64,000 bases of DNA, from positions 106,222 through 170,221 of the IMG/VR virus record IMGVR_UViG_3300046758_000611, one strand, 5' to 3'. Position 1 is the first letter of the stretch. Each line of letters opens with the position of its first letter. Under the pieces are notes generated by a model. The model was not told where the DNA came from, searched no databases, and worked only from the letters and a program-made list of their open reading frames with translations. A program made the translations under genes and the position numbers. Positions 7,852 through 37,499 of the stretch are shown piece after piece. This DNA is from a virus.

Positions 7852-7978
7852 ACAAAAAAAAGTATTTATTAAAACAAAAAAACCTAGTATAATATTCCTT
7901 AATAAATCAATAAATTATAAACAACCAACACAAACTGAAATATCTAAACAAGATTTAGCGGATAGGTGGGGATAGATT

Positions 7979-8350: not shown

Positions 8351-8354
8351 AATT

Positions 8355-8762
8355 ATGAAAACCGTAGCAGTTAGTGGATACTTTGACCCAATTCATGTGG
8401 GTCATTTAGAATATCTTGAGTTGGCAAAAAAACTTGGTGATCGTCTTGTTGTTATTGTAAACAACAATCATCAATGTGTTCTTAAAAAAGGCAAACCATT
8501 TATGGATGAAGCAGACCGAGTAAAAATCGTAGAAGCACTCGGAATAGTTGATGAAGTTTTTCTCAGTATCGATGGAGACAAAAGTGTATGTGCTTCTCTT
8601 GATGCAATTAAACCCGACATCTTTGCAAATGGTGGAGATAGAAGCACAGGTGAAGTACCCGAAAGTGTTATTTGCAAAAAGCATGGCATTGAAATGGTCG
8701 ATGGACTTGGTGATAAAATTAGAAGTTCAAGTGATTTGACTGGCTTAAAAGAAAAGAAGTAG
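8355..8762 (+). CDS. Cytidylyl/adenylyltransferase (HxGH family)
   Basis: SGYFDPIHVGH, FANGGDR, KIRSSS; ATG at 8355. Confidence 0.9.
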   Translation: MKTVAVSGYFDPIHVGHLEYLELAKKLGDRLVVIVNNNHQCVLKKGKPFMDEADRVKIVEALGIVDEVFLSIDGDKSVCASLDAIKPDIFANGGDRSTGEVPESVICKKHGIEMVDGLGDKIRSSSDLTGLKEKK

Positions 8763-8781
8763 TTCCTATCTATTTATTTGT

Positions 8782-10995: not shown

Positions 10996-11462
10996 AAATT
11001 TCAGAAGAACGACTGCAAACTATGTATGAGTTAGCAGGTTTAAATAAACAAACTCTACATGATGCTCTTCGTATCATGGGAAAAAAGCATCTTAAAACAA
11101 AGTTGATGAAAGAAGGATGGACACACGACAATCCAACTAAAAACTATTGTTATGTAATTGCAGAATTTGTTTATTATTATTTATCACCAAGAGGGTCTAA
11201 ACCATATAAGTTACCTGGCATACCAGGAGACGATGGATTGCATCGTTTTATTATGTGGCCAGATTATTCTGTTGTGGATTTGGCAGTTGACCAATTTCCT
11301 AATTTTGAAGATGTAGATTATACAAAAGCAAAAATATGCTATTTTATGGTAAATACATTCGGAGTACCTGGACCATCAAAACGAACAAGAATTTTAGCAG
11401 AACTCATGGGATATGAGTTATCAGAAGAACGAGCAATTAAAGTAAATACAAAATCATGGTAA
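10992..11462 (+). CDS. Hypothetical protein
   Basis: Overlaps both neighbours; NYCYV..E, H, DLAVDQF could be a Cys-His-Asp triad. Confidence 0.6.
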   Translation: MKISEERLQTMYELAGLNKQTLHDALRIMGKKHLKTKLMKEGWTHDNPTKNYCYVIAEFVYYYLSPRGSKPYKLPGIPGDDGLHRFIMWPDYSVVDLAVDQFPNFEDVDYTKAKICYFMVNTFGVPGPSKRTRILAELMGYELSEERAIKVNTKSW

Positions 11463-12283
11463 TGTTATCAAAATTTATAGAATCAGTATACGAAGACAAC
11501 ACAGGTAATATGTGGAGTGAAGATCAATTGTTAAATTTGGTTAAAGATTGGGAAGACCCAAATCCAAAACCTATTATTATGAACTACGAAGGAATTGATG
11601 TGGTTAGAGATGATCTTCTAAATCACGGTAGTAAAATTCGTTTCGTAGATAAACTTATTCGTGAAACTTCTGCAAAAGAAATTGTATTTGGGTGTTGCCC
11701 TGCAACAGGTTATGCACAAATATCTTTACCAGCAGTTGCACAGAAATACAACAAAAAAGTTGTATTGTTTATGGCAAAACGCAATCCAGAAAACTATCAT
11801 GAATATCAAAAAAGAGGAATGGACTTGGGTGCTATATACGAGTGGGTAAATATGGGAATGTTATCAGTTACAAAATCAAGAGCAAAAAAATATGTAGCAG
11901 AGGACCCAGAAAATAGAATGGAATTTCCAATCGGATTAGAACACCCAACGGTTGTAGCAAGTATTATTAAAGTTGCAAGAAATGCTTTATCCGAAAATCC
12001 ACCAAGTGAAATTTGGAGTGTTGGATCAAGTGGAACAATTAGTCGTGGTTTACAACTTGCTTTTCCTGAGATACCTGTTAATGTAGTATCTGTTGGACAC
12101 AAAATGAACGAAAGAGAAATAGGACGAGCAAAATATTACAGATCAGAATATCAGTTTGATAAGGCAATAAAGGAAAATGAAATGCCACCATTTCCATCTG
12201 CCCCAACATATGATGCCAAAGCATGGAAGTTTGTAAAAGAACACGCAAAAGAAGGTGCTTTGTTTTGGAATGTAGGTGCATAA
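11456..12283 (+). CDS. PLP-dependent enzyme, fold type II (ACC deaminase/D-cysteine desulfhydrase-like)
   Basis: VVRDDLL..GSKIR (Schiff-base Lys), SVGSSGT phosphate loop, YDAKAW. Confidence 0.8.
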   Translation: MVMLSKFIESVYEDNTGNMWSEDQLLNLVKDWEDPNPKPIIMNYEGIDVVRDDLLNHGSKIRFVDKLIRETSAKEIVFGCCPATGYAQISLPAVAQKYNKKVVLFMAKRNPENYHEYQKRGMDLGAIYEWVNMGMLSVTKSRAKKYVAEDPENRMEFPIGLEHPTVVASIIKVARNALSENPPSEIWSVGSSGTISRGLQLAFPEIPVNVVSVGHKMNEREIGRAKYYRSEYQFDKAIKENEMPPFPSAPTYDAKAWKFVKEHAKEGALFWNVGA

Positions 12284-12284
12284 T

Positions 12285-13874
12285 ATGAAAAAATACTTTT
12301 ATGAAAAAAACAATCTTGCGGAATGTAGAGTCAATATAACATTCCACGAACTTCTTCAAAAGAATGGAAAAGAATTAGAAGAGTGGATTGATGAACTTAG
12401 AAACTATATTGTTGAAACTTGGGATAACGAAGGTCTTCCTCCGAGAACTGGTAAAAACGAAAAAGACATCATAGCAAATTTAAATAAGTTATCAGGATAT
12501 AATGTATATAAGTTTCAACACACAGACGAAATGGACGGAACAAATACCATCATTAAAAACTTTAATAAGTTCGCAACTGTGGTTGATCAGTTTTTTCCAA
12601 CGATGCTTAAAACTAAAATAGGTTCTAGTAAGCATACATCTTGGAGTGTATATGATTGCTTTGCTAATCCAGAGAAACGAGAAAGTTTCCACACTTGTAT
12701 GAGAAGAACGGTCCGACGAGATTCATTTTATGCTCACGGAAGAACAATCAAGAAAAATGATTATGATGTTCCGTGTCCAACTGAAAACGCAGAAGAGTGG
12801 GTTCGTAATTTTGTCAAAGAGAAACATCTACATCCATATAACGACTTTTGGATTATTGAGTTGTTTACAGAAAAAAAGTTTGATTCATATGAAGCAAGCA
12901 GTTTAATGTTAACGGCAAAGCAAATCAAGAAATTATACAAAGAAGGTTTGCTTAAATTAAACAACATTAGAAATTTAGAAAGAACTGCAAACTTCGGTGA
13001 CGATATAGAAAATATAAATGATGTAATTATCGAAGACGAAAAAGAAGTACAATTCAAATTCAGTATTCGTTACTACAACAAGAACTCAAGAATCTTTCCG
13101 TCAGCAATGGAAGCATTTAAACTTGGTCTTAGTCAACCAGCAGTAAACTTTCCTCCGTTGACTGCAAAGTATATTTATCAGACGTACACAGATCACATTC
13201 AAGATAAAAGCAATCTTCATATATATGATCCAAGTGCAGGTTGGGGTGGACGTATTCTAGGTGCTATGTCAGTACACGATAGACAAATTCATTATATAGG
13301 AACTGATCCAAACACAGACAATTATATAGATGAACTAAATCAAAGTCGTTATGAATATCTTGCCGACTTCTTTAATGACAAAACAAACGGAGGTAATCCG
13401 TTCTTTGGTCATCGTAACACTTACGATGTTTATCAGAATGGAAGTGAAGAAATTCACAAGAATCCGAGTTTTCAAAAATACAAAGGTAAACTTGATTTGG
13501 TTTTTACAAGTCCACCATATTTTAATCGTGAACAATATTCAGCAGATGAATCTCAGAGTTTCAAAAAGTTTCCAGAGTATGAAGATTGGAGAGACAACTT
13601 TCTTCGTCCTACTTTGAAGACGGCTGCCGAGTATTTGAAGAACGATAGATATCTACTTTGGAATATCGCAGACATCGCAGACGGAGACGGATTTATGCCA
13701 TTAGAAAAAGATAGTCGTGATATTCTTGCGGAATATGGACTTGAGTATGTTGAAACTCTTAAAATGCTTATGACAACAATGCGTGGTGTTAAAGCAGAAA
13801 CGGTTAAGAATTGTTGCAAGATAAACGGAGAGTTGCAAAAGTATGAACCTATCTTTGTGTTTTACAAGAAGTAA
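12285..13874 (+). CDS. SAM-dependent amino-DNA methyltransferase-like protein
   Basis: YDPSAGWGGR (motif I), FTSPPYF (motif IV). Confidence 0.8.
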   Translation: MKKYFYEKNNLAECRVNITFHELLQKNGKELEEWIDELRNYIVETWDNEGLPPRTGKNEKDIIANLNKLSGYNVYKFQHTDEMDGTNTIIKNFNKFATVVDQFFPTMLKTKIGSSKHTSWSVYDCFANPEKRESFHTCMRRTVRRDSFYAHGRTIKKNDYDVPCPTENAEEWVRNFVKEKHLHPYNDFWIIELFTEKKFDSYEASSLMLTAKQIKKLYKEGLLKLNNIRNLERTANFGDDIENINDVIIEDEKEVQFKFSIRYYNKNSRIFPSAMEAFKLGLSQPAVNFPPLTAKYIYQTYTDHIQDKSNLHIYDPSAGWGGRILGAMSVHDRQIHYIGTDPNTDNYIDELNQSRYEYLADFFNDKTNGGNPFFGHRNTYDVYQNGSEEIHKNPSFQKYKGKLDLVFTSPPYFNREQYSADESQSFKKFPEYEDWRDNFLRPTLKTAAEYLKNDRYLLWNIADIADGDGFMPLEKDSRDILAEYGLEYVETLKMLMTTMRGVKAETVKNCCKINGELQKYEPIFVFYKK

Positions 13875-19959: not shown

Positions 19960-20568
19960 TTAAAAAGAAGAATTTTTAAATAAATAAGGTTTCCATTCCT
20001 CTCTCATGACATTACCTACTTCATAAAATGGTTTTGGTGGACTTGCTTTTAAGATTTCCCCTTTGTAGTCATAATATGGAAATATACTACCTTTTCTTGA
20101 GTTGCACTTTACACAGGTCAATGTTAAATTAAAATAATCATTGTCACCACCCTTGCTTTTTGGTTTGATGTGTTCTATTGTCAATTTATTTTGAGGAAAG
20201 TGTTCACCACAAATTTGACAAATGCCTTCGTATTTTTTGTAGAGATATTTAATTGAAGGTTTTCTTTTTGAGTTATATGTAAAATTTGCAGTAGTGAGAA
20301 GAATTGTAGGCACTGGTATAACATGGTTAACCGACCGAACAAAAGGTTGCTGGTCGTAAAAACCATGCTTGTATTCAAGCCATTTATTCCAGTCACAGGT
20401 GGTGCCGTCACTTGCAACTGCCATTACTTTTGGTCGTGTTTTGTGGAATCTCTCGGTTGCACCCATAAGTTTCTTTAAACCTTCTTTTACCGAAGTTACA
20501 TTTAAAGGTGTCCAATAGTGAGTCAATAGCAACACTAAATTTTCCGATGTAGTAACGTATTGATACAT
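19960..20568 (-). CDS. HNH endonuclease
   Basis: CQICG...TIEHIKPKSKGG...NLTLTCVKCNSRKG. Confidence 0.9.
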   Translation of the reverse strand: MYQYVTTSENLVLLLTHYWTPLNVTSVKEGLKKLMGATERFHKTRPKVMAVASDGTTCDWNKWLEYKHGFYDQQPFVRSVNHVIPVPTILLTTANFTYNSKRKPSIKYLYKKYEGICQICGEHFPQNKLTIEHIKPKSKGGDNDYFNLTLTCVKCNSRKGSIFPYYDYKGEILKASPPKPFYEVGNVMREEWKPYLFKNSSF

Positions 20569-22415: not shown

Positions 22416-23636
22416 GTGCAACTTTCCGACCACTTTAAAAAGTTCTACAACATGAAACCATATCTTCTTATTGAAGAGGAAGAGTGGAAGAGCATAATTC
22501 AAACGTATGAAAAAGAAGATGTTGTAGAAGAATTGGCAAAAGTTTTGCACACCTATCCTGTTCCGTTACCTGAGATTACCGAAAAGCAAACTCTTGATAG
22601 TTTAAATAAGTTAAAAGGAATAAAGCATAATGATGTGCTTGTAGAAAAAAGATGGTTTCCTCGTAACGAAAGAAAAAGTAATTATCATTTAAACTATAAA
22701 GGTTCTCAGTATCTATTAAAAAGAAACAATTCAGGTAATAATGCTTCTAATCCATTTCATGTAGAAACTCGTTGGAAAGTAGATTGGACAAGAACACCAA
22801 GTGGTTGGAAAACTTGGCAAACAGTCAATGGAATCAAAACAATCGTTCGTGCTTATTGGACATTAGATAAAGTTCTCAATCGTGTTGATGTAAATACTCT
22901 TCGGGTAGCTACAACTCTTCGTAAGTATGTCGCATCGCAATTCAAACCAGCAGTTGCAAAAGCATTTTACGATCACTTTCAAAGCAAGAACGTATTAGAC
23001 TTTAGTGCAGGTTGGGGAGATAGATTAGCAGGATTTTATACAGGTGAAACCACAGAGCATTATGTGGGAATTGATCCCAATACACTTAACCACCCCAATT
23101 ATCAAAAGCAAATTCAGTTCTATGAAAAGTATTCTACATTTTTTGAACAAGATAGAAAAGCAGACTTAATAGAAAGTCCTGCCGAAGATGTAGATTATTC
23201 CCAATATGACAATTACTTTGATACGGTGTTTACAAGTCCACCTTATTTTAATACAGAAAAGTATTCAGACGATGATACGCAATCTTGGGTGAGATATAAA
23301 AAGATAGATGACTGGAATGAGAGATTTCTTCACACTACACTTGGTAAAATAATTCCGACAATAAAAAAGAATGGTATTCTTGCGGTAAACATAGCAGATG
23401 TATTTAATGCTCCTATCAATGACTATGTTGAAATTACGAACCCGATGAACGACTTTATTAAATCAAAGGGTCTTGAATATATTGGTTGCATTGGAATGGA
23501 AATGACGAAACGATTTAATTCAGGTGGTGCGGGTAATGCCAAGAGTGAATATTTTTCGGAAGACCTAAAAGAAATAACCGAGGAGACTAAAGATATTGCG
23601 TTTGCAGAACCTATTTGGACTTGGAAAAAGGTTTGA
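22416..23636 (+). CDS. SAM-dependent amino-DNA methyltransferase-like protein (paralog of 12285-13874)
   Basis: LDFSAGWGDR, GIDPN, FTSPPYF, NIAD, EPIW. Confidence 0.8.
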   Translation: MQLSDHFKKFYNMKPYLLIEEEEWKSIIQTYEKEDVVEELAKVLHTYPVPLPEITEKQTLDSLNKLKGIKHNDVLVEKRWFPRNERKSNYHLNYKGSQYLLKRNNSGNNASNPFHVETRWKVDWTRTPSGWKTWQTVNGIKTIVRAYWTLDKVLNRVDVNTLRVATTLRKYVASQFKPAVAKAFYDHFQSKNVLDFSAGWGDRLAGFYTGETTEHYVGIDPNTLNHPNYQKQIQFYEKYSTFFEQDRKADLIESPAEDVDYSQYDNYFDTVFTSPPYFNTEKYSDDDTQSWVRYKKIDDWNERFLHTTLGKIIPTIKKNGILAVNIADVFNAPINDYVEITNPMNDFIKSKGLEYIGCIGMEMTKRFNSGGAGNAKSEYFSEDLKEITEETKDIAFAEPIWTWKKV

Positions 23637-25940: not shown

Positions 25941-28448
25941 ATGTACCAAAATATATTCGTAAGCAAAAAGGACAACACAATTTATTTGTGGGATGATAAA
26001 CAAGGTTTAGTAACCTACAAAAACAAACCATACGCATACAGAAAGTCTCCGAACGGAATGTATCGTAGTATGTATGGTGACAAGTTAGAAAAGGTAACTA
26101 AGTATCGGTATGAAGATGCAGGTTTGTTTGAATCAGATGTTCCTATTGAAACACGTAACTTAATTGACCTTTACGAAGATGACGATGAACCAAGTACAGG
26201 TCATTGTGTATTAAACTTCGATATTGAGGTTAGTATGGAAGGAGAGTTGCCTGACACAGAACGAGCAAACAATCCTATTACTTCCATTGCGTATCACGAT
26301 AGTTGTTCTAATAACTATGTGGTTCTTGTTTTAGACAAGGAAGATAAAATCACCGACTATTCTAATGATGAAGTTTCGGTTTATTCTTATGATACAGAAC
26401 GAGCAATGCTTGAACACTTTCTTGATTTTTATCAAGAGATTAGTCCGACAATATTGACCGGTTGGAACATTGATTACTTTGACGTTCCTTATTTGTATCG
26501 TAGACTCGCAAGAGTTTTAGGGCAAGGTGATGCAAATCGTTTGAGTCCTATTGGACACGCATATTATCATCAGTTCAAGAAACGTATTGTTATTGCAGGT
26601 GTTAGTTGCTTGGATTATCTTGCGTTATACAAGAACTTTACATTTAGTGTTGAACCAAGTTATCGTTTGGATGCAATTGGTCGTAAAGAAGTTGGTATTG
26701 GTAAAGTTGAATACGAAGGTAATCTTGATGATTTGTTTTCACAAGATATTGAGAAGTTCATTGAATACAATTTGAACGACGTAAAGATTGTTGTTGAGAT
26801 TGATAGAAAGATGGAACTCATTGAATTGACTCGTAGCATTTGTCACGTTGGACACGTTCCGTATGAAGACATTTTATTTTCGTCTCGTTATCTTGAAGGT
26901 GCATTGCTTACTTATCTTCGCAGACACAATCTTGTCGCACCAAATAAAGACCCAAATGGTCGTGAACGATTCAATGAAATTAAAGGTGACGAATCCAAGA
27001 AGTTTAGTGGAGCATATGTGGCTGCACCGACACCTGGCAAATACAAGTGGGTGTTTGACTTGGATTTAACTTCTCTGTATCCATCTATTATTATGTCCAC
27101 GAATATTTCACCAGAAACCAAAGTGGGTGTTGTTGATAATTGGAGTCCCGAGAAGTTTTGTGACGGAGAACAAACCGAAGTTGGATTTCGTGGAGAAACA
27201 TATTCAGCAGATGAGTTCAAGGCATTTCTAAAAGATAACAATCTTTCTATCAGTAGCAACGGAGTTATGTATACCAAGAATAAGGTCGGACTTATTCCTG
27301 CGATTCTTGATCAATGGTTCAACCAACGTGTTGAGTTCAAGAACAAAATGAAAGAGTATGGTAACTCAGGTGACGATGCAAAGTATGTGTTCTATAAAAG
27401 ACGTCAGCACGTGCAAAAGATTCTTCTTAATTCGTTGTATGGTGTTCTTGGTTTGCCTATCTTTCGGTTTTATGATGTGGACAATGCAGAAGCAGTTACG
27501 ACCACAGGTGTGTCCGTGATTAAGTTTAGTCGCAAGATTGCGAATCACTATTACAATAAAACACTTGGTGATACAGAAGATCATTGTATATACATTGATA
27601 CCGACTCGGTTTTCTTTTCAGCATTGCCTATCGTAGAAAAAACGATGCCTCACGTTGATGTAAAGAACGATGACGAAATGGCAACTGCAATTCTTGAAGT
27701 TGCGGGTGATGTACAAAACTTCATCAATAAAAGTTATGATGTTATGGCAAAACGTTTCTTCAACATTGAAGAGCATCGTTATGACATTAAACAAGAAGTG
27801 ATTGCCAAAGCAAGTATGTGGTTGGCAAAGAAACGATATGCACAATGGATTATCAACAACAACGGTGTTACTTGTGACGAATTGGAAGTTAAAGGTCTTG
27901 ATGTTGTGCGTAGTAGTTTTCCAACTCGGTTTCGTAAGTTTATGACGGAAATCCTCAAAGATATTTTGAAGGATGTGCCGAAAGAAGAAATTGATGAAAA
28001 GATTGTTACACTCAAAAAGCAAGTTAAGAACGAGTCGGTTGATGATATTGCAAAGACGAGTGCAGTTAAAAATATATCCAAGTATGTAAAGATGATGGAT
28101 AAAGGTGCAGTTATGGGTGAGTGTGCAAAAAGTACACCCGCACACGTTAAATCAAGTATCATTCACAATCAGTTTCTCAAAAAGTTTAAAATACAAAGTG
28201 AACCTATTCGTAATGGTGAAAAAATTAAGTGGATTTATTTGAAGAACAATGAACTTGGTTTAGATGCACTTGCGTTTCGTGGTTATGAAGACCCACCACA
28301 ACTTATGGAGTTTATTGAGAAGTATGCAGATAAAGATAAATTGTTTGAACGAGAACTTGAAGGAAAGTTGCGTGACTTTTACGATGCACTTAGTTGGGAC
28401 TTTGCAAGTGAGAATCTTGCAACTGCTCAAAAGTTTTTTGCTTTCTAA
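25941..28448 (+). CDS. Family B DNA polymerase (T4 gp43-like)
   Basis: DIE, GWNIDYFD, YNLND exonuclease motifs; DLTSLYPS, KILLNSLYG, YIDTDS, KKRY. Confidence 0.97.
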   Translation: MYQNIFVSKKDNTIYLWDDKQGLVTYKNKPYAYRKSPNGMYRSMYGDKLEKVTKYRYEDAGLFESDVPIETRNLIDLYEDDDEPSTGHCVLNFDIEVSMEGELPDTERANNPITSIAYHDSCSNNYVVLVLDKEDKITDYSNDEVSVYSYDTERAMLEHFLDFYQEISPTILTGWNIDYFDVPYLYRRLARVLGQGDANRLSPIGHAYYHQFKKRIVIAGVSCLDYLALYKNFTFSVEPSYRLDAIGRKEVGIGKVEYEGNLDDLFSQDIEKFIEYNLNDVKIVVEIDRKMELIELTRSICHVGHVPYEDILFSSRYLEGALLTYLRRHNLVAPNKDPNGRERFNEIKGDESKKFSGAYVAAPTPGKYKWVFDLDLTSLYPSIIMSTNISPETKVGVVDNWSPEKFCDGEQTEVGFRGETYSADEFKAFLKDNNLSISSNGVMYTKNKVGLIPAILDQWFNQRVEFKNKMKEYGNSGDDAKYVFYKRRQHVQKILLNSLYGVLGLPIFRFYDVDNAEAVTTTGVSVIKFSRKIANHYYNKTLGDTEDHCIYIDTDSVFFSALPIVEKTMPHVDVKNDDEMATAILEVAGDVQNFINKSYDVMAKRFFNIEEHRYDIKQEVIAKASMWLAKKRYAQWIINNNGVTCDELEVKGLDVVRSSFPTRFRKFMTEILKDILKDVPKEEIDEKIVTLKKQVKNESVDDIAKTSAVKNISKYVKMMDKGAVMGECAKSTPAHVKSSIIHNQFLKKFKIQSEPIRNGEKIKWIYLKNNELGLDALAFRGYEDPPQLMEFIEKYADKDKLFERELEGKLRDFYDALSWDFASENLATAQKFFAF

Positions 28449-29344
28449 TGGCAAACTATAATCAAATACTTCCAATCAGAAAAGATTGTAGAATTGATGA
28501 ACAATTCGGTTGGTTGCCTTTGAGTGTATTAGAACCAAGTCGTGATCATCGTGAACAATGGCCGGAAGCATATCTTGATGATGGAATTCGTGAAACAAAA
28601 AGAAGTAAAGATGCAGAGAATCTTCCTGGTCTTAGATTCAGTGAGTTTCACGCAGGATTAGCAGAGCAAATTCTTCGTTATTGGAGTATGCGTGGAAGTG
28701 TAATCGTAGACCCATTTTCAGGTCGTGCTACACGTGCTATGGTTGCAAGTAAACTTGGTCGTAACTATCAAGGTTACGAAGTATCAAAGCAAACATATGA
28801 TCGTTGTATGAAGCATTTTAAAAAGTTCAAGGTATCACCCAAACTTTTTAATTGTGATGGAACAGAGATGTTATATACACGAAATGAAACTGCGGATTTG
28901 GTATTTACTTGTCCTCCGTATCACAATCTTGAAAAATACGAAACTGCAAAAAATCAATTAAGTGAATGTGAAACATACGAAGACTTTATGACTCAAATTC
29001 AAAAGTGTGGTAAAAATATAAATCGTGTTTTGAAACCAGGAGCATTTTGCGTATGGGTTGTTTCAGATTGGAGAGATATGACAGGTAGTGGTCTTCGTAG
29101 TTTTCATTCGGACTTGATTACTGCATTTGTAAACGAAGGAATGATTCACCACGATACAATTATTATGAAGAATCTTAGTCCGTTTGCTTATGTTCAATGT
29201 GCGAAAGTAGCAAGCAAAAGATACACAAGTAAAATACACGAATATATTATGGTTTTTCGCAAAAAAGGTGAATATGAAATACCCGATTATTGTGAGCAGG
29301 ACGAACTGCGTGTTAATTCAAATAAGTTTTTTAGTTATGAATAA
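28448..29344 (+). CDS. DNA amino-methyltransferase
   Basis: DPFSGRATR (motif I), FTCPPY (motif IV), RVLKPG, HEYIMVF. Confidence 0.85.
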   Translation: MANYNQILPIRKDCRIDEQFGWLPLSVLEPSRDHREQWPEAYLDDGIRETKRSKDAENLPGLRFSEFHAGLAEQILRYWSMRGSVIVDPFSGRATRAMVASKLGRNYQGYEVSKQTYDRCMKHFKKFKVSPKLFNCDGTEMLYTRNETADLVFTCPPYHNLEKYETAKNQLSECETYEDFMTQIQKCGKNINRVLKPGAFCVWVVSDWRDMTGSGLRSFHSDLITAFVNEGMIHHDTIIMKNLSPFAYVQCAKVASKRYTSKIHEYIMVFRKKGEYEIPDYCEQDELRVNSNKFFSYE

Positions 29345-30767
29345 AATAATCAATGGAGATAGTTTGAAAGTCCTCAAGAAACTTGAGGACGAATCAGTAG
29401 ACTTGGTGTGTACAGACCCACCTTATGGATACTCGTTTATGAATCGTGATTGGGACAAAGCAGTTCCTGCATTAGAAATTTGGCAAGAGTGTTTACGAGT
29501 TTTGAAACCAGGAGGATTCTGCTTCGTTATGTCAGCACCACGTTCAGATGTACAAAGTCGTATGATGGTTCGTTTAGAAGATGCAGGATTCAATATCGGA
29601 TTCACTCCGATTTATTGGACATACGCAACAGGATTTCCAAAAGCACATAATGTGGCAAAGACGGTGGACAAACAACTTGGTAAAAAAAGAAAAGTTATTG
29701 GAAAATACAAAACTCCCGAAGGCAACCAAGAACTAACTACATATAACAATTGGAAGGATAGTGACACGCAAGAAAGAAGAACACCCGATATAACTGAACC
29801 TGCATCCGATGAAGCAAAAGCACTTGAAGGTTCTTATGTAGGTTATCAACCTAAACCTGCGGTAGAAGTTGTGCTTGTCGCAATGAAACCAATTATAGAA
29901 AAAACCACCACTGAACAAGCAATGAAAAATGGCAAAGGAATTACTTGGTTGGACGATTGTAGAATTCCAACAGATGAAAGTTTAGATGGTGGAGCATATG
30001 CAAAAAATCCAACACCACGTGAAGGAAAAGATATGTGGACTTCCGACAGAAAAAAAGAAACCAAGTGCTTTGAACGAGGTGGTGCAGGAGAATATAAACA
30101 ACCAGACGGAAGATTCGCAGCCAATCTAATTGTACAAGACGATGTACTTAATGATGGAGTAAAACGAAGCAAAGGAAAACACACAGATAGTGGAAGTGCA
30201 TCTGGTGGTATTTGGCAAGAAAGCACAGGCAAACCAGCAGGAAGAACTTACGGAGACGAAGGATCGTTTTCTCGTTTTTACGATTTGGATTCTTGGTGGA
30301 AATCACAAATACATAAATTGCCCGAAAGTGTTCAAAAGACTTTTCCTTTTATGATTGTCGCAAAAGCAAGTAAGGCAGAAAAAAACAAAGGTCTTGAACA
30401 TCTTCCTAAAAAGAAAAGTTCTTCAATGCCGGGAAGAAGAAATGCAGAAGATATGAGCAATAGCAAAATCGACCACGATGTTACTGGTAGATTTGTCACG
30501 GAAAAACAAAATGTTCATCCAACCGTTAAACCAATTGAACTAATGAGTTATTTGATAACACTTGGAAGTCGTGAAAATGATGTGGTCGTTGATCCGTTTG
30601 TTGGAAGTGGAACAACTTGCATAGCAGCCAAAATGCTTGATAGAAAATACATCGGAATAGAAAAAGAAAAGGATTATGCAATCATTGCCAAAACTCGTCT
30701 TAAAGATGCAGAATCTCCCAACCAAGCAAGTGAGAAAAACAAAAGCAACGAGTTCTTTGCTTTTTAA
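29337..30767 (+). CDS. DNA N6-adenine/N4-cytosine methyltransferase (beta class)
   Basis: TDPPY, HPTVKP, DPFVGSGTT; ATG at 29337. Confidence 0.92.
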   Translation: MNKIINGDSLKVLKKLEDESVDLVCTDPPYGYSFMNRDWDKAVPALEIWQECLRVLKPGGFCFVMSAPRSDVQSRMMVRLEDAGFNIGFTPIYWTYATGFPKAHNVAKTVDKQLGKKRKVIGKYKTPEGNQELTTYNNWKDSDTQERRTPDITEPASDEAKALEGSYVGYQPKPAVEVVLVAMKPIIEKTTTEQAMKNGKGITWLDDCRIPTDESLDGGAYAKNPTPREGKDMWTSDRKKETKCFERGGAGEYKQPDGRFAANLIVQDDVLNDGVKRSKGKHTDSGSASGGIWQESTGKPAGRTYGDEGSFSRFYDLDSWWKSQIHKLPESVQKTFPFMIVAKASKAEKNKGLEHLPKKKSSSMPGRRNAEDMSNSKIDHDVTGRFVTEKQNVHPTVKPIELMSYLITLGSRENDVVVDPFVGSGTTCIAAKMLDRKYIGIEKEKDYAIIAKTRLKDAESPNQASEKNKSNEFFAF

Positions 30768-30768
30768 A

Positions 30769-31365
30769 ATGAAACAAACTAAAGTATTTATAGAAATCGG
30801 AACTTCTAATTTTAATACACTCGAAGTATTAGCAGAACAGGGTTGGTCTGGTATATTTGTAGAACCAGATAAATGGTATTTATCTCAAATAAAAAGATTT
30901 AAACATTGTCTATATGATAATAGTGCAATATTAGACTTTAATGGTGAAACAGAGTTCGTTAATTACGATGCCGACTGGTTATCAAACAATGAAGCAGGTG
31001 ACTTTATGTGGAAACGTGGTGTCGGTAATACACATCCTACTATTAATAATATGAAATTAAATCCAGAATGGCCTACTATTAAATTCAATGTACAAGTTAA
31101 AACTTTGAATAAATTAGTAGAAGAATATGATGTAGAACAAATTGACTTTTTAAAAATTGATATTGAAGGACAAGACCCAAAAATATTGTACGCATATGAT
31201 TTTTGTGTAAGACCAAGTAAAATTAAAATGGAAATTATTCACGCAAATTCATATGGAATTAATACAACAGATTTTAAGAACTATATGTTAAAAAACAATT
31301 ATTCTGTTTATTGTGAAGATGATTACGATACCCAAGATATTTGGTTTTTTGACAATTTAAAATAA
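30769..31365 (+). CDS. FkbM-family methyltransferase
   Basis: [21 protein letters not shown]. Confidence 0.85.
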
Positions 31366-31372
31366 TAAGAAT

Positions 31373-32491
31373 ATGGAACAAAATTATACAAAACTAGCAG
31401 ACCTTCTTGTAAGACATAGTGTGTCGTTACAGAAAGGAGAAAAGGTATTAATAGACAACACAGAAGTGCCGGAAAATATGACGATTGCACTTGTTCGTGC
31501 AGTTCGTGAATACGGAGGAATACCTTTTGTACAAACATCGCAAAGTCGCATAGGTCGTGAAGTTATGCTTCATGCAACCAAAGAACAAATGGAAACCTTT
31601 ATGAAGTTCAGTATGCCTAAGATTCAAGAAATGGATGCTTATATTGCTATTGCAGGTTCTCATAATATATACGAAACAAGTGATGTTGATCCTGATATCA
31701 AAACAATGATGTCCAAGATCACTAAACCATATCTTGATTATCGTGTAAACGAAACTAAATGGTGTATTTTAAGATGGCCACATCCTGCTATGGCACAACA
31801 AGCAAATATGAGTACCGAAGCATTTGAAAACTTTTACTTTGATGTTTGTACATTTGATTATGCTAAATTTAATCCTGGTATGAGCAATCTGCAAAAAAGA
31901 ATGCAGAACGCAGATAAAGTTCACATTAAAGGTGATGACACAGATTTGCGTTTCTCTATAAAAGGAATTAATGCAGTTGCGTGTGGTGGTACTCATAATA
32001 TACCAGACGGAGAAGTATTTAGTTGTCCAATTAAAGATAGTGTTGAAGGACACATTCAGTTTAATGCCCCAACAATTTATCGTGGAATTGACTTTGACGG
32101 AATTCGGTTGGAATTCAAAAAAGGAAAGATTATCGATGCTACTGCAAATAGTGATACAAGCACCGAGTCATTAAATGAAATTCTTGATAGTGATGACGGA
32201 GCAAGATACATTGGTGAGTTTGCTATTGGATTTAACCCATATGTTACACATCCAATGCGTGATATTCTGTTCGACGAAAAAATAGGTGGTAGTTTTCACT
32301 TTACCCCCGGTCAATGCTATGATGATGCAAGCAATGGAAATGATTCACAGGTTCACTGGGATATGGTAAAAATACAACGACCAGATTATGGTGGTGGTGA
32401 AATTTACTTTGACGATGAACTTATTCGAAAAGATGGAGAGTTTGTTGTTAATGATTTGATACCACTCAATCCAGATAAATTACTAAAATAG
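31373..32491 (+). CDS. Aminopeptidase, peptidase M29 (AmpS/AmpT family)
   Basis: [31 protein letters not shown]. Confidence 0.93.
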
Positions 32492-32494
32492 TAG

Positions 32495-32523
32495 TTGACG
32501 AATGTATACGTATTTAATATAAT
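32495..32523 (+). promoter_or_regulatory. sigma70-like promoter, probably leaderless transcript
   Basis: TTGACG-N17-TATAAT, 6 nt before ATG 32530. Confidence 0.75.
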
Positions 32524-32529
32524 ATATTT

Positions 32530-32913
32530 ATGTTTTACGAAGATTTATTTGAATTAGAAGATGAGTATATAGAAAAGCATAATAAGTACACCTCCGGGTT
32601 TAGTTCTATATTTGAATTAAAACGAGAAAAAAAGTTTTATGCATTATACTCTGCACTTACAACGTGCCACGGAATCATGATTGGAAAAACGTTATGTAAT
32701 TATAATTTATGCGATATTAAAAAAATGAAACCAAGTGAACGTATTTTAGAAGTTTCTTATTCAGATATAATTCACTTTTTTGATATTGAAAGTTTGATGG
32801 ATGCAAAATTAAATGACCACTCATTTTCAATTAACAATACAAAAAATGAAAAAATTGATTTAATACCCGTACAGATTAGGAGTATGATAACAGATGGAAA
32901 AATATATACCTAA
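32530..32913 (+). CDS. Hypothetical protein
   Basis: ORF directly after promoter. Confidence 0.6.
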   Translation: MFYEDLFELEDEYIEKHNKYTSGFSSIFELKREKKFYALYSALTTCHGIMIGKTLCNYNLCDIKKMKPSERILEVSYSDIIHFFDIESLMDAKLNDHSFSINNTKNEKIDLIPVQIRSMITDGKIYT

Positions 32914-33151
32914 CGAAAAACCAAATATACACATACTCAGCATAGAGGACGATGAAAACGGAAACCCAAAGTTTTCGTATGAAGTTAATGATGCTTTCAT
33001 CGAAATGATTAAAAAAGAAAAAAAACTTAACAATATCGACGAACAATCAATAACAAATTACATAACGGAACTACTAGAAAATTGTTCTAATGAAAAAAAT
33101 GGTTATGGGTATAAAAAAGTAGATTTAACAGATAATAAAATTGACAATTAA
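32894..33151 (+). CDS. Hypothetical protein
   Basis: Overlapping ORF in operon. Confidence 0.55.
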   Translation: MEKYIPNEKPNIHILSIEDDENGNPKFSYEVNDAFIEMIKKEKKLNNIDEQSITNYITELLENCSNEKNGYGYKKVDLTDNKIDN

Positions 33152-33169
33152 CAATTAAAATAATAATAT
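33141..33169 (+). promoter_or_regulatory. sigma70-like promoter of clamp/clamp-loader genes
   Basis: TTGACA-N17-TAATAT, 7 nt before ATG 33177. Confidence 0.65.
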
Positions 33170-33176
33170 ATAAACT

Positions 33177-33902
33177 ATGAAAAAAGATAAAGTACTACAA
33201 TTCATTTCTCGTTACAATCTTAATGGTAACGTAGAATCAGTTAAGTGGGAAACTAACGGAGACAACGTTTGCGAAACCACCTTCATTACCGATGACAAAA
33301 GTGTTCTCGGCAAAGTATCTGCAAAGGACTTTGAACTCACAGAAGGTGAAGTCGGTGTTTATGATACTGCAAAGTTGAAGCAGTTGTTGTCAGTCGTTGG
33401 TGACGAGATTAATGTTGAGGTTGTTGAAAAGAACGAAAAGAATGTCAGCATTAATGTTTCAGATGACACAACAAGTGTTAATTTCATGCTTGCTGATTTA
33501 GCAGTAATTCCTAACGTGCCTGCACTAAAAGACTTGCCAGATTTTGATCTGCAAATTCCTTTTAGCAATGACTTCGCAAAGAAGTTTGTTCGTTCTGCAA
33601 GTGCATTAAGTGATTGTGATACATTTACAATTGTTCCATCTAAGGACGGAATTCAATTGGTAATTGGTTATTCTACTATCAATAGCAATCGTGTTTCTTT
33701 GAATGCGATAACAGAGGGTAACGGCACAATCACAGACCCCATTAGTTTTTCCTCGAAGTATTTCAAGGAAATTCTTAATGCAAATAGTGACTCTGAAAAG
33801 AGTGTTCTCAATGTTAGTTCAAAAGGAATTGCAAGCATTGATTTTGAAGTCGGTGACTTCCGTAGTAGTTATTACTTGGTTGAAATTCAAACAACCGATT
33901 AA
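33177..33902 (+). CDS. DNA sliding clamp (T4 gp45/PCNA-like)
   Basis: 241 aa acidic two-domain alpha/beta pattern (GVYDTAKL, SYYLV); directly upstream of clamp loader. Confidence 0.8.
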   Translation: MKKDKVLQFISRYNLNGNVESVKWETNGDNVCETTFITDDKSVLGKVSAKDFELTEGEVGVYDTAKLKQLLSVVGDEINVEVVEKNEKNVSINVSDDTTSVNFMLADLAVIPNVPALKDLPDFDLQIPFSNDFAKKFVRSASALSDCDTFTIVPSKDGIQLVIGYSTINSNRVSLNAITEGNGTITDPISFSSKYFKEILNANSDSEKSVLNVSSKGIASIDFEVGDFRSSYYLVEIQTTD

Positions 33903-34858
33903 TGAATTTCTTAGAAGAAGCAACAAAGTCTCCAGTTGAATCGGAAAATAGTCTTTGGGTTGAGAAATATCGACCCAAAGACTTATCTGATTATATCGGA
34001 AACGAACCTTTAAAGAAACGAGCTGCTTCGTGGATTGAGTCGAAAGACATTCCACATTTGCTTTTGTATGGTAAAGCAGGTACAGGTAAAACTACACTTG
34101 GTAAGTTGATTACAAAGCAGATTCCGTGTGATCATTTGTATATCAATGCAAGTGACGAAAACAATGTTGATACCGTGCGTACCAAGATTAAGTCATTCGC
34201 AAGCAGTATGGGATTCAATGATCTTAAAGTTGTATTGCTTGACGAGTGTGACTTTCTTACAGGCAATGCTCAGGCTGCGTTAAGAAATCTAATGGAGCAG
34301 TTTAGTATGACTACTCGTTTCATTCTTACTTGTAATTACCACGAAAAAATCATTGAACCGATTGTCAGTCGTTGTCAAACATTCAACATCGTTCCTCCTA
34401 ATCGTAAAGATGTTGCAGTTCATCTTGCCAAGATTCTTGCTAAACAAGAAATCAAAGCACAACCAGATGATATTGCATTGATTGTAAACAAAGGTTATCC
34501 TGATATTCGTAAGGTGATTAACAATGCTCAACAGAATAGCATCAATGGCACTCTTGAGATTATCAAAGAAGACCTTATTGAAGGTGACTATAAGTTAAAG
34601 TTGTTGGACATTCTAAAGAATGCAAGTAAAGACAAAAAGAATGCTTGGCTAACTGCTCGTCAACTTATTGCAAATGAAAAGATAAATGACTTCACAGATG
34701 TTTACAAGTTTTTGTTTGATAATGTAGATGAGTATGCTCCTGGTAAAAGTGCAAACATTGTTATTATGCTTGATCAACAAACTTACCACGATAGTTTGGT
34801 GGTTGATAAAGAAATTACATTTGCATCAACCATCGCACAAATCGTTCAAACACTATGA
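33902..34858 (+). CDS. Clamp loader AAA+ subunit (gp44/RFC-small)
   Basis: WVEKYRP, GKAGTGKTT, NASD, LLDECD, SRC. Confidence 0.95.
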   Translation: MNFLEEATKSPVESENSLWVEKYRPKDLSDYIGNEPLKKRAASWIESKDIPHLLLYGKAGTGKTTLGKLITKQIPCDHLYINASDENNVDTVRTKIKSFASSMGFNDLKVVLLDECDFLTGNAQAALRNLMEQFSMTTRFILTCNYHEKIIEPIVSRCQTFNIVPPNRKDVAVHLAKILAKQEIKAQPDDIALIVNKGYPDIRKVINNAQQNSINGTLEIIKEDLIEGDYKLKLLDILKNASKDKKNAWLTARQLIANEKINDFTDVYKFLFDNVDEYAPGKSANIVIMLDQQTYHDSLVVDKEITFASTIAQIVQTL

Positions 34859-35026: not shown

Positions 35027-35075
35027 GTACTTATATAAAATGTATATATTTATGCGTGGTTAATATTTATACTTG

Positions 35076-37499
35076 ATGAATAGCACCCATATAAAAGAAG
35101 CAAATGTAGAGCAAGATATGTATTACACAGGTATTGCCGAAAAAGCATATGATAAAGTGGTGCGATTTTTAACTAAACATAAAGATAAATTAGAAGGTGA
35201 GGGTGAGAATAGTATAGTCAACAAACCATTTATACCACTTACACAATGGAAAGGTGTTGCTCTTAGAGGAACAGACATAGATAAAAACTTTCCGTCTTTA
35301 AGTGAGGTAGTATTATTTTTCATTCCAACAAAAAGTACATCACGTGGTGGAGTAACAATCGCAGGTGGTTTCACAAACAAAAGTTTGAAAGTCGGTGGAA
35401 TATCATTTAAAGGTGTAATTGTAAATGCTAATCTACTTGGTGATTACAATGGCAAGTATATGGATACTCGTCTTGATAAAGATACATTCATTCACGAATA
35501 TATACACTTTCTTGATCATTTGAGGTATCGTAGTCGTGGTTTAGGAAAAACAAGTGCCAAGTACTTAGATACACAAGATATAGAAGGATACTACAACACA
35601 CCAGAAGAATTTAATGCATATTATCAAGCAGGACAATCTCAGATAGTTCGTGTATGGAAAAATCTATCTGATCGGTTTGCACATCGTCCGGAATTTCTTG
35701 CCGACTTTAAAAAGAAGAAATTAGAAAGTTACAAATCATTTCAAGATTGGGCAATTGATGTAGAGTTTTTTGATAAAGACTTTCTTACATATATAAACAG
35801 TAAATATCTCAAAAAGTTTAAGAAACGATTAGCAGGTTTATATATGTATATACAAAAAGGTAATCTGTCGGAAATCATTTCAGAAAGCAAAGTAAAGGTT
35901 GATAGCAACTCAGTAAAGAAGTGGGCAAAGGATTTAAGAGTTCTTACCAAGGCATATAAGCAAATTGGTAGTGATAGTGAAGACCCACAGGCAATTAAAG
36001 ACTTTAAAAAAGTAAGAAGAGCATTTGGTACATTCCAAGAAAACTTTGAGAAATGGGTTTACAAATTCTTTTTACAATATAAATGGCAAGGTGCTAGTGA
36101 TAAAACAGAATCTTGGGAGGCAAAAGAAGTTCGTGAAAAGTGTTGGAGAGCAGTTACAAGTCTTGGTGGAAATTTTCCAGAGTTTTGGGACTTTCAAACT
36201 AAAAAGCATCGTGTAAGTCCACAAATACTTGCAAGAGAACGAGAAAAGAATATTCGAAGGTATCGTGCAGAATTTCGTGAAGGAATCAAAGCACTTCTTC
36301 AGTATGTTGCCATATATGGAGATCAAGAAAGAGAAAAACCAATTGAACAAGCACAAATAGGACCAGTTAAATTGGTTATTCACAACTTCAAAAGAAAAGG
36401 TGGAAGTGAACAAGGAGAAGCAAGTCGTGAAAAAAGTTTCAAGCAACTTGTAGATGGTATTAAAAGTTGGTCAAAGAAAATTCAAAAAGCAGGTTTTGGA
36501 AAGTGTATAGAAGGATTAACCGTTGATTTAGATTTTGGGTTAACAGCAGATACGGGAGAAATGGTCAATGGTGAGTATTATATGAATAAAGATATGCTCA
36601 AGTTGTACGGATGTGGAATGACGCAAGATACATTCACACATGAACTTGGTCATCGTTTTTGGTATCGTGAACTTCCCTCTAATGCAAAGAAGCATTGGCA
36701 AGATACAATTAAAAGCAAGAAAGTATCTATTGAACGTAAAGATGTAGAGGATTATGTAGAAAAGTATTTTGATAAGAATGGAAGCAAGATATACAAAAGA
36801 CGAGCAGGATTAAAAGTCATTGATAAAAACGAAGACAATGTCGAGACCAAAGCAAAGTTCAAGGCACTACAAATGACATCAGTTTACTCAACCGAGAACA
36901 GAAAAGAAGTTGTAACAAAATTAGCAGATAGGTGGGTTGGTCCTGGCAAAGAAATTCCGATTGAACACATTACTAACTACGGAAATACAAATCCAGAAGA
37001 AGCATTTGCAGAAGCATTTAAACTATATATAATAAGAGGTCCTGGTAAATTAGGAGAATGGACTCGTTGGTTCTTTCGTGAAATCGTTAGAACAGGAGGA
37101 GCAACTATCAAGGAAATTAAAATAATGAATAATAAAAAAGCATTAAACGAAGTCGCAATGAACAAAGACAATGTTCAAGAGTTTATCAAATTTGCAAAAA
37201 ACGCATTACAATTAAAAGAAAAAGTATCAGTAAAACTTTTAGAGAAACGACATGAGCATATGACGGCTGCTTGTTATGATCCGAATACCAATGAAATTTC
37301 TATATATACAAAAGGAAGAGCATTTGCTGATGTGTGTCGTAGTCTTGCCCATGAAATGGTTCATCAAAAACAAAATGAACTAGGTTTACTTGAAGCAAAT
37401 AGTGGTGAAACCGGTAGTGATATAGAAAACGAAGCAAATGCGTGTGCTGGTATTATTATGCGGAACTTCGGAGAAGTAGTTGGAAATCTTTACGATTAA
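35076..37499 (+). CDS. Large protein with three zincin-like (HExxH) metallopeptidase domains
   Basis: HEYIH (about aa141), HELGH (about aa523) with EEAFAEAF, HEMVH (about aa760) with ENEAN. Confidence 0.75.
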   Translation: MNSTHIKEANVEQDMYYTGIAEKAYDKVVRFLTKHKDKLEGEGENSIVNKPFIPLTQWKGVALRGTDIDKNFPSLSEVVLFFIPTKSTSRGGVTIAGGFTNKSLKVGGISFKGVIVNANLLGDYNGKYMDTRLDKDTFIHEYIHFLDHLRYRSRGLGKTSAKYLDTQDIEGYYNTPEEFNAYYQAGQSQIVRVWKNLSDRFAHRPEFLADFKKKKLESYKSFQDWAIDVEFFDKDFLTYINSKYLKKFKKRLAGLYMYIQKGNLSEIISESKVKVDSNSVKKWAKDLRVLTKAYKQIGSDSEDPQAIKDFKKVRRAFGTFQENFEKWVYKFFLQYKWQGASDKTESWEAKEVREKCWRAVTSLGGNFPEFWDFQTKKHRVSPQILAREREKNIRRYRAEFREGIKALLQYVAIYGDQEREKPIEQAQIGPVKLVIHNFKRKGGSEQGEASREKSFKQLVDGIKSWSKKIQKAGFGKCIEGLTVDLDFGLTADTGEMVNGEYYMNKDMLKLYGCGMTQDTFTHELGHRFWYRELPSNAKKHWQDTIKSKKVSIERKDVEDYVEKYFDKNGSKIYKRRAGLKVIDKNEDNVETKAKFKALQMTSVYSTENRKEVVTKLADRWVGPGKEIPIEHITNYGNTNPEEAFAEAFKLYIIRGPGKLGEWTRWFFREIVRTGGATIKEIKIMNNKKALNEVAMNKDNVQEFIKFAKNALQLKEKVSVKLLEKRHEHMTAACYDPNTNEISIYTKGRAFADVCRSLAHEMVHQKQNELGLLEANSGETGSDIENEANACAGIIMRNFGEVVGNLYD

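Follow-up and report, generated by a model that had tools for sequence, protein, structure and literature searches.

Candidate clamp-docking tails on two DNA methyltransferases encoded behind the polymerase of an uncultured T4-like marine phage

A phage has to modify its new DNA before nucleases of the host reach it, and how modification matches very fast phage replication is, to our knowledge, largely unexplained. A locus in the genome of an uncultured T4-like marine phage (170 kb, 149 ORFs) raises the question of why two DNA methyltransferases should end in the same kind of short aromatic peptide as the DNA polymerase whose gene precedes theirs. A sequence-only reading of the window (the whole 64,000-nucleotide stretch that was analysed) had given the three C-termini as ...ATAQKFFAF in the polymerase (polB), ...NSNKFFSYE in the first methyltransferase (MT1) and ...KSNEFFAF in the second (MT2), and had proposed that these tails tether the methyltransferases to the sliding clamp. 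The endings are exactly as it gave them, and the motif of the resident polymerase (KFFAF) is matched by KFFSY in MT1 and EFFAF in MT2. Judging from a structural model and from analogy, we consider it fairly probable that the tails of polB, MT1 and MT2 hook onto the phage's own clamp and that new DNA is modified during replication.

Locus and enzymes

The gene coordinates (Table 1) bear out the arrangement described in that reading, in which polB, MT1 and MT2 overlap and the clamp and clamp-loader genes follow 2.4 kb downstream of this block. The overlaps are at TAATG for polB and MT1 and at ATGAATAA for MT1 and MT2, with the ATG at 29337 the most likely start of MT2. polB resembles T4 gp43 and the clamp loader T4 gp44 (phmmer, 1e-67 and 4e-27, respectively), and the best match of polB in a named phage is Microcystis phage Mel-JY01 (47%), whose polymerase ends SKFFNFK. 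MT1 and MT2 belong to the PF01555 N6_N4 DNA methyltransferases, with scores of 84.9 and 111.6 bits against a gathering cut-off of 26.7. The CPPY of MT1 and the DPPY of MT2 are invariant in their family alignments, and both proteins are predicted from sequence to have this activity.

Table 1. Features of the locus and two tail-less proteins encoded elsewhere in the window
Feature	Position	Strand	Length (aa)	Basis
polB, family B DNA polymerase (T4 gp43-like)	25941..28448	+	835	Pfam DNA_pol_B 1e-40, exo domain 6e-24
polB C-terminal tail AQKFFAF, putative clamp-binding epitope	28425..28445	+		Ending conserved in relatives
MT1, N6_N4-type DNA methyltransferase, motif I before CPPY	28448..29344	+	298	Pfam PF01555 1e-23
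MT1 tail NSNKFFSYE	29315..29341	+		Family C-terminus survey
MT2, beta-class N6_N4 DNA methyltransferase, DPPY first and FxGxG last	29337..30767	+	476	PF01555 7e-32
MT2 tail KSNEFFAF	30741..30764	+		Family-cluster alignment
FkbM-type methyltransferase	30769..31365	+	198	Pfam PF05050 8e-11, domain end near residue 176
M29 aminopeptidase, without tail, same operon	31373..32491	+	372	Pfam Peptidase_M29 7e-54
Sliding clamp, gp45/PCNA fold	33177..33902	+	241	AF2 and Foldseek
Clamp-loader ATPase (T4 gp44-like), AAA+	33902..34858	+	318	Pfam AAA, DNA_pol3_delta2, Gp44_lid
Methyltransferase-like protein without tail, ends FVFYKK, internal NPFFGH	12276..13874	+		Weak PF01555 match
Methyltransferase-like protein without tail, internal STFFEQ	22416..23636	+		Weak PF01555 match

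The FkbM-type protein, encoded fourth in the row after polB, MT1 and MT2, ends ...DIWFFDNLK, which is possibly a fourth tail, if an uncertain one; this ending is conserved in the related contig L010, and the FkbM homologue of the relative G001 ends GMFFAK. The weaker internal FF motifs that the sequence-only reading had listed in other modification enzymes (GNFFEE, located within 9709-10995, NPFFGH and STFFEQ) are present and conserved in their families, and nothing ties them to the clamp. Specifically, the cluster of the 12276-13874 protein keeps an internal [TS]FF and has the tail in 0 of 6 members, and that of the 22416-23636 protein keeps an internal TFFE and has the tail in 0 of 15. The product of 11456-12283, considered as a further methyltransferase, was rejected since it is PLP-enzyme-like.

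Distribution of the tails

The sequence-only reading had proposed a survey of C-termini in homologous methyltransferases, and a survey of relatives finds the tails conserved. All 63 distinct polB relatives (52-100% identity) have the ending K/Q-FF-[SAGT]-F, and an aromatic pair (FF, WW or FW) stands within the last eight residues of 110 of the 120 MT1-family representatives counted (at least 50% identity). The linker before this pair is variable (18-37 residues), and the AF2 model of MT1 (pLDDT 89) ends its last strand at residues 265-272 and leaves the final eight residues disordered (pLDDT 46). Among 85 distant MT1 homologues with an identifiable core end, 51 terminate no more than eight residues past the core, and 50 of these 51 are without the aromatic pair. 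No MT1-family enzyme of a cultured phage is closer than 31%. The layout of MT2, as seen in its alignment, is a catalytic core, a low-complexity DAESPNQASEKNKSNE linker and then FFAF; every one of the 11 members of its family cluster has FF or FW at its end, even at 31-34% identity (KFFSF, NKFW).

Similar tails are found well beyond these two families. Related phages carry them on three N6_N4 clusters and on unrelated folds, namely D12 methyltransferases, the Mom family, TAGT (TET-associated glycosyltransferase), GNAT, an AsnS-like enzyme and endonuclease I; 5 of 23 small N6_N4 methyltransferases are tail-less. The sequence-only reading had allowed for FF endings being equally common among unrelated proteins, and they are not: in related phages the tail occurs on 58 of 84 proteins of DNA-enzyme type and on 8 of 936 others (Fisher 6e-65), a count in which the sequences are related to each other, yet six families are independent. 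Tails matched between polB and methyltransferases recur in L016, L078, L145, L146, L138 and L142. For example, polB of L145 ends NQFFEF beside methyltransferases ending NKYFDF and QNKFF and a Mom protein ending ERFFDL, and L146 pairs NEFFSF with EQFFDF; in L138 and L142, the very last residues of polB are RFF, and those of the methyltransferases are WW, FF or FL. These endings suggest that the enzyme tails track the tail of the resident polymerase. In L078, a 496-residue protein ending ...NKFF adjoins the clamp gene.

Three MT1-family representatives end instead in QGDLF.., QNDLFA and QMHLFA. These endings match Qxx[L]F, the motif for binding to the bacterial beta clamp, and stand where the known QL[SD]LF clients (Pol II/IV/V, MutS, Hda and others) have theirs; MT1 and MT2, in contrast, have the FF type associated with phage clamps. 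The Qxx[L]F-ending member with genomic context lies on a small phage contig showing no polB or clamp.

In T4, the tails of gp43, gp33 and gp55 bind gp45 and are mutually interchangeable (PMC2988020); read from NC_000866, gp43 ends ...SLDFLFG and gp55 ...SLDFLYEAND. No homologue of gp33 or gp55 was found in the present genome or its relatives G001-G004 by phmmer with T4 gp55, by phmmer with the L147 gp33 and gp59, by the PF16805 HMM run on five genomes, or by PHROGs on ten mid-sized ORFs. Therefore, the gp33 positive control was drawn from another clade, represented by the related T4-like contig L147. Its gp33 homologue (PF16805, 4e-20) ends SLSGFFKGD and its MT1-family methylase ends SLEQFFK, such that SL..FFK is common to both.

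Clamp model and rival explanations

The clamp is modelled by AF2 with a pLDDT of 90 and a pTM of 0.88, and the top Foldseek matches of this model are PCNA (TM 0.70-0.74, E 1e-12). Its profile finds T4 and RB69 gp45 as the best PDB matches, weakly (E 0.08), and T4 gp45 matches the clamp orthologue of G001 at 1e-4. A check of the kind suggested by the sequence-only reading, in which residues 437-476 of MT2 were modelled together with the clamp trimer, scored 0.75 (runs of 0.00, 0.75 and 0.75) against 0.15 for the best of three controls. Between runs, at least 10% of contacts agree, and the partner has a pLDDT of at least 27. Of 80 solved complexes 58 attain this mark, as do 2 of 110 mismatched pairs; many solved structures show a clamp bound to a C-terminal peptide, so the pass may reflect likeness to these rather than this particular pair. 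MT2 residues F473 and F474 are placed in a conserved clamp pocket, where 14 of 19 contact residues are invariant or nearly so, compared with 61 of 222 elsewhere (P 9e-5). The model thus supports binding of the MT2 tail in this pocket.

Because the tails are conserved, absent from distant homologues and present on unrelated DNA-modifying enzymes, and because of the gp33 control in a related phage and the complex model with its controls, the view that the methyltransferase tails are of the same kind as the polymerase's clamp-binding tail is strongly supported. The earlier tethering claim is thus supported in part. Its comparison with PIP boxes does not extend to the canonical form Q-x-x-[ILM]-x-x-[FY]-[FY], since polB has L-A-T-A-Q-K-F-F and MT2 has K-N-K-S-N-E-F-F at these positions, and the aromatic pair alone fits. 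From the structural model and by analogy, we infer that tail and clamp bind physically, and methylation would then be coupled to replication.

It is appropriate to ask whether such tails might arise by chance in an AT-rich, Phe-rich proteome, where codon usage is rich in TTT and FF endings are also seen on a few unrelated ORFs. The frequency of FF in this proteome is 0.0018 per position, and a tail with a polar residue before F[FW] among its last seven residues is expected in 0.67% of proteins; the 149 ORFs contain four such tails against 1.0 expected (P 0.02), which is a modest enrichment at the level of the genome. These four belong to the polymerase and its neighbours and not to random genes. 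At 0.0067 per protein, the chance for three adjacent genes is about 3e-7, and family-wide conservation in the ortholog survey effectively refutes coincidence, to which we give almost no credence. Some FF endings are structural, such as that of a baseplate protein ending GVSFFYP.. A degenerate FFxF-stop DNA pattern was no commoner in whole genomes than its reversed control in AT-rich DNA; tails of relatives were surveyed instead at the ORF level in two complete relatives. Only slightly more credible is a recombination scar, with cassettes behind polB having copied its 3' end and the tails having no function of their own. GCAAGTGAGAA and TTYTTTGCTTTY are indeed common to the 3' ends of polB and MT2, and the top DNA scores belong to genes directly behind polB (L016 scores 19). 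However, the 3' 63 nt of most tail genes, compared with the end of their own polB, score close to controls (mean 9.9 versus 7.9), and tail genes are found as far as 8.7 kb upstream of polB and, in G004, 51 and 91 kb away from it. Moreover, across the 120 family representatives the linker diverges freely and the aromatic pair persists, and the FF codons differ among genes (TTT TTT or TTC TTT), which means that copying of a DNA segment does not by itself account for the likeness. After this DNA-level comparison of 3' ends, the scar was rejected as a general explanation.

Non-polar C-termini can serve as degrons, and ClpP-like genes adjoin the clamp loader in L142 and L146, which could fit a turnover signal (e.g. 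one read by a Clp-type protease) that sets when early enzymes are removed. We regard this as very improbable, if a shade less so than the scar, because it leaves unexplained the restriction of tails to DNA-acting enzymes, their sharing with gp33, the switch to a beta-clamp motif and the constancy of the tail on a replicative polymerase. A more serious contender, albeit still unlikely, is docking on another shared partner (clamp loader, gp32 or helicase loader), with co-recruitment to the replisome by another route. What ties tail to clamp in this clade is the model alone, and gp32-type proteins bear distinct acidic-aromatic tails (AFxxLF), which shows that several tail-based interactions coexist. 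Against this, gp45 is the partner of both the polymerase tail and the gp33 tail in the T4 paradigm, the gp33 homologue has the tail as well, a Qxx[L]F variant singles out clamps, and the predicted pocket is the most conserved surface of the clamp.

If the tails dock on the clamp, as we prefer, the K/Q-FF-x-F polymerase ending would be this clade's clamp-interaction peptide, the counterpart of SLDFLFG in T4 gp43, and MT1 and MT2 would each have acquired such a peptide behind the catalytic core on a linker that is flexible and poorly conserved. The peptide would insert its aromatic pair into a hydrophobic pocket of the gp45/PCNA-fold clamp, formed by residues 37-44 of the N-domain, 112-120 of the inter-domain connecting loop and 233-238 of the C-terminal strand. 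Since a clamp trimer would offer three pockets and be loaded only at primer ends, methyltransferases would be concentrated on freshly replicated DNA. Held by the clamp, they could slide along the DNA and quickly give it protective modification, either at the fork or on clamps left behind on new DNA.

Precedents and biological meaning

Three precedents come closest: the tails of T4 gp43, gp33 and gp55, the binding of T4 alpha-GT to gp45, and DNMT1 on its clamp PCNA. As in T4 and RB69, a flexible linker leads to a short hydrophobic peptide at the very C-terminus, and this peptide is common to the polymerase and other putative clamp clients, alongside a gp45/PCNA-fold clamp and a gp44-like loader. 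However, the clients here are DNA-modifying enzymes rather than transcription factors, and the motif is K/Q-FF-x-F rather than SLDFLF. T4 alpha-GT is likewise a phage DNA-modifying enzyme linked to a phage sliding clamp; it binds gp45, and its modification of DNA has been proposed to go hand in hand with replication (Sommer et al. 2004; PMC13216743). That interaction was found not to be the main determinant of the modification level (PMC13216743), and thus tethering need not have a large effect. Unlike MT1 and MT2, alpha-GT ends ...KEQFDIITK without a polymerase-like tail and binds gp45 despite a C-terminal His tag; it is also a single enzyme, whereas here a seemingly portable tail spans many families. 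DNMT1 is tethered by PCNA to newly replicated DNA via a short clamp-binding motif (PMC9690074), but it is a C5 enzyme with an internal N-terminal canonical PIP box, in contrast to the PF01555 amino-methyltransferases MT1 and MT2, and the resemblance is one of mode of working and not of membership. In the literature searched, DNMT1 is the only clamp-linked methyltransferase and T4 alpha-GT the only phage case; this literature names no methyltransferase among beta-clamp clients and holds no description of shared clamp-docking tails on phage DNA-modifying enzymes.

We see an even chance that the FF/WW/FW tail serves the post-replicative DNA-modifying and DNA-processing toolkit of marine T4-like phages as a portable address tag that is re-tuned for each clamp. 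This toolkit would comprise several classes of amino-methyltransferase, Mom-like enzymes, TET-associated glycosyltransferases, acyl- and amido-transferases and resolvases. Tails of FF type would go with a gp45-like clamp of the phage, and Qxx[L]F with the beta clamp of the host. If this is true, the tail could help to predict a DNA-directed function for uncharacterised proteins, for example the 496-residue protein of L078, and its type could reveal which clamp a phage exploits. The tail may also serve as a sequence signature for new DNA-modification enzymes in metagenomes. If true, a modular clamp-docking tail on many modifying enzymes would extend the list of phage-clamp clients well beyond the polymerase and late-transcription factors, give viruses of prokaryotes a counterpart to DNMT1 on PCNA, and offer a simple and general answer to how modification keeps pace with replication.

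The polymerase-methylase-clamp block and its C-termini

The window, which forms the final 64 kb of an uncultured virus record of 170 kb and has a G+C content of ~33%, carries a single tightly packed plus-strand gene block at 25941-34858 (see table). The genes for the polymerase (polB) and two DNA methyltransferases (MT1 and MT2, whose motif order differs) are joined by gene overlaps (TAATG; ATGAATAA), and the closest polymerase from a named phage, that of Microcystis phage Mel-JY01, is 47% identical. The sequence-only reading held that all three proteins end in aromatic-pair peptides, or tails, by which the methyltransferases might be tethered to the sliding clamp, and both the C-termini and the overlaps read exactly as it described. 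In one metagenome protein (P0014, 429 aa), the polB C-terminus is fused in frame to MT1 (..AQKVFCFL then MANYNQ..), apparently through the change of a single base in the T-run where the genes overlap at TAATG; this may be a sequencing or assembly error. The whole record is listed in IMG/VR as a 'provirus', 84% complete, yet its genes are those of a lytic T4-like myovirus.

Features of the window and of related loci (window coordinates unless a locus is named)
Feature	Position	Strand	Remarks
Sugar-nucleotide genes	6014-9687		Upstream of modification genes; UDP-glucose/GDP-mannose dehydrogenase, NAD-dependent epimerase/dehydratase, heptose adenylyltransferase-like
Four coupled genes, none with tail	9709-13874		Look like a DNA hypermodification operon; 2OG/Asp-Asn-hydroxylase-like (428 aa), 156-aa ORF, PLP-enzyme-like (275 aa; PHROG 'threonine dehydratase'), methyltransferase-like (532 aa)
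Methyltransferase-like proteins	12276-13874; 22416-23636		No tail
HNH endonuclease	19960-20568	-	Breaks into plus-strand early block; probably a homing endonuclease
polB, family B polymerase	25941-28448	+	Pfam 1e-40; 1e-67 to T4 gp43
MT1	28448-29344	+	298 aa; PF01555 DNA methyltransferase
MT2	29337-30767	+	From ATG at 29337; 476 aa; PF01555 DNA methyltransferase
FkbM-type methyltransferase		+	Fourth consecutive gene, after MT2; C-terminus DIWFFDNLK
M29 aminopeptidase	31373-32491	+	Thermophilic-type; inside the operon, and kept there at 93-97% in close relatives
Two small ORFs		+	Between M29 aminopeptidase and 241-aa protein
241-aa protein	33177-33902	+	Sliding clamp
Clamp loader, gp44-like AAA+	33902-34858	+	4e-27 to T4 gp44
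808-aa protein	35073-37499		After clamp loader; several HExxH-type zincin motifs, weak Reprolysin-like Pfam match; kept at 90% in related locus L011
gp32-type single-strand-binding proteins	Whole record 8462-9292 (outside window); L138:6912-7676; L142:7059-7814		End ..AFEELFKS, ..AFNELFDK, ..AFDDLFNK
Mom-family (PF25680) tandem pairs	L017:5068-6964; L015:5014-6766		~3-5 kb upstream of polB; also in many other related loci
496-aa protein	L078:13919-15409 (= G004 67636-69126); L049:7967-9457		Directly after clamp gene; ends ...NKFF
Unannotated 247-aa protein	L147:8148-8891		Between gp59 and gp32; ends ..GESSLFDFQ

An FF pair lies within the last 12 residues in ~10 of the 171 ORFs of the whole genome, and four of these are neighbours in the polB block. 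The expected share of proteins with F[FW] preceded by a polar residue among their last seven positions is 0.67%, which puts the chance of finding this in three adjacent genes at ~3e-7. Because the codons for FF are not the same between these genes, the likeness is not simply that of a copied DNA stretch. The weaker internal FF motifs that the sequence-only reading also listed are kept within their families, but nothing ties them to the clamp.

Conservation and distribution of the tails

Across 80 related viral loci, MT1 and MT2 orthologues retain their tails, and the ending K/Q-FF-[SAGT]-F is present in every one of 63 distinct polB relatives, the most distant at 52% identity, as well as in the Mel-JY01 polymerase (C-terminus SKFFNFK). 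MT2 relatives at just 31-34% identity still present KFFSF or NKFW at the end, behind an unalignable linker. A search of 5.8 billion proteins gave 120 MT1 representatives at ≥50% identity (the contig of one MT1 relative, P0003, is given as 493 kb long). FF, WW or FW/YF occurs in the last eight residues of 110, and most of the other ten have an aromatic pair a few residues further inward. Past the last strand of the core (..VFRK), a variable stretch of 18-37 residues follows. In the MT1 model, the strand at 265-272 is the last structured element, and the final eight residues have a pLDDT of 46. Among the 85 distant representatives (30-45% identity) whose core end is identifiable, 51 stop no more than eight residues past the catalytic core, with an aromatic pair missing from 50 of them. 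Thus, the tail is an add-on of the phage subfamily.

Beyond the polymerase, we surveyed the related loci and two complete relatives (G001 and G004). Tails were found on N6_N4 (three clusters) and D12 (Dam-type) methyltransferases, a small class I methyltransferase-like protein, one of two tandem Mom-family paralogues (...NFW), a TET-associated glycosyltransferase (...NKFW), a GNAT, an asparagine-synthase-like enzyme, a T7-type endonuclease I and two proteins of unassigned family. The tail is present on 58 of 84 distinct proteins from recognised DNA-modification families, versus 8 of 936 others (Fisher 6e-65, which overstates independence because the sequences are related; six unrelated families are involved). 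The background includes a baseplate protein (GVSFFYP..) in all three genomes, and 5 of 23 small N6_N4 enzymes lack the tail.

In the Mom pairs, the ~267-aa copy ends ...NFW and the ~255-aa copy ends ...PINLEISN, without an aromatic tail; the two might form a heteromer that has just one tether. The 496-aa protein matches no Pfam or PHROG family, and its tail alone marks it as a candidate for a new DNA-acting enzyme.

The sliding clamp as putative partner

Although the 241-aa protein has no match in Pfam, the PDB sequences that score best against its family profile are those of T4 and RB69 gp45, with a weak E of 0.08, and T4 gp45 matches its G001 orthologue at 1e-4. Its AF2 model (pLDDT 90, pTM 0.88) matches PCNA structures at TM 0.70-0.74. 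We conclude that it is the phage's own sliding clamp.

The sequence-only reading had proposed modelling this clamp with the tails. When the clamp trimer was modelled with residues 437-476 of MT2, the score was 0.75 (runs 0.00, 0.75, 0.75), and the highest of three controls came to 0.15, with run agreement of at least 10% of contacts and partner pLDDT of at least 27. In 80 solved complexes this mark is attained 58 times, and in 110 mismatched pairs twice; the pass may be due in part to likeness, given the many solved clamp-peptide complexes. Modelled F473 and F474 touch clamp residues 37-44, 112-120, 217-218 and 233-238, which we take to be the canonical PCNA-peptide pocket under the inter-domain loop. 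Contact residues are invariant or nearly so at 14 of 19 positions versus 61 of 222 elsewhere (P 9e-5), among clamps only ~45% identical. The model thus supports, rather than shows, binding of the MT2 tail in the clamp pocket.

The tail type also follows the resident polymerase across clades. In locus L145, the endings are NQFFEF for polB, NKYFDF and QNKFF for the methyltransferases, and ERFFDL for Mom; L146 pairs NEFFSF with EQFFDF; and in L138 and L142, the very last residues are ..RFF in polB and ..WW, ..FF or ..FL in the methyltransferases. On the T4-like contig L147, an MT1-family enzyme ends SLEQFFK and a gp33 homologue (PF16805, 3.9e-20) ends SLSGFFKGD. Three MT1-family representatives end instead in the bacterial beta-clamp motif type (QGDLF.., QNDLFA, QMHLFA), and the one with genomic context lies on an 8-kb phage contig that has a primase-helicase and neither polymerase nor clamp of its own. 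Given these small numbers, this variant is no more than suggestive of the clamp as tail partner.

Two further endings were seen. The acidic-aromatic ending of the gp32-type proteins represents a second class of conserved tail in these replisomes, and that of the unannotated 247-aa L147 protein is another candidate clamp tail.

Alternative explanations and known clamp clients

Short DNA words are common to the 3' ends of polB and MT2, as might be left by a recombination scar from the polB 3' end. However, comparison of the 3' 63 nt of tail genes with the polB end of the same genome generally gives scores much like those of controls (9.9 vs 7.9), and such genes can be as far as 8.7 kb upstream of polB or, in G004, 51 and 91 kb away; we consider a scar exceedingly improbable. 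A degron is very unlikely, as it would leave unexplained both the restriction of the tail to DNA enzymes and the match to gp33. Docking on a common partner other than the clamp would account for a shared tail, and this we regard as unlikely.

Clamp binding by such peptides has precedent. T4 gp33 and gp55 are clamp clients with polymerase-like C-terminal tails (in NC_000866, gp43 ends SLDFLFG and gp55 SLDFLYEAND), and it is well established that gp45 binds the tails of gp43, gp33 and gp55, which can replace one another (PMC2988020). DNMT1 is a clamp-tethered methyltransferase. Among phage modification enzymes, T4 alpha-glucosyltransferase, which has no tail of this kind, is known to bind the clamp, and the glucosylation level is set by its expression level rather than by the gp45 interaction (PMC13216743). 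Our literature search found no account of a DNA methyltransferase or other modification enzyme, phage or prokaryotic, with the polymerase's clamp tail. We infer that the polymerase and methyltransferase tails physically bind the clamp. If so, the enzymes might work at the replication fork itself or on clamps that stay on new DNA, and the effect might be large or small.
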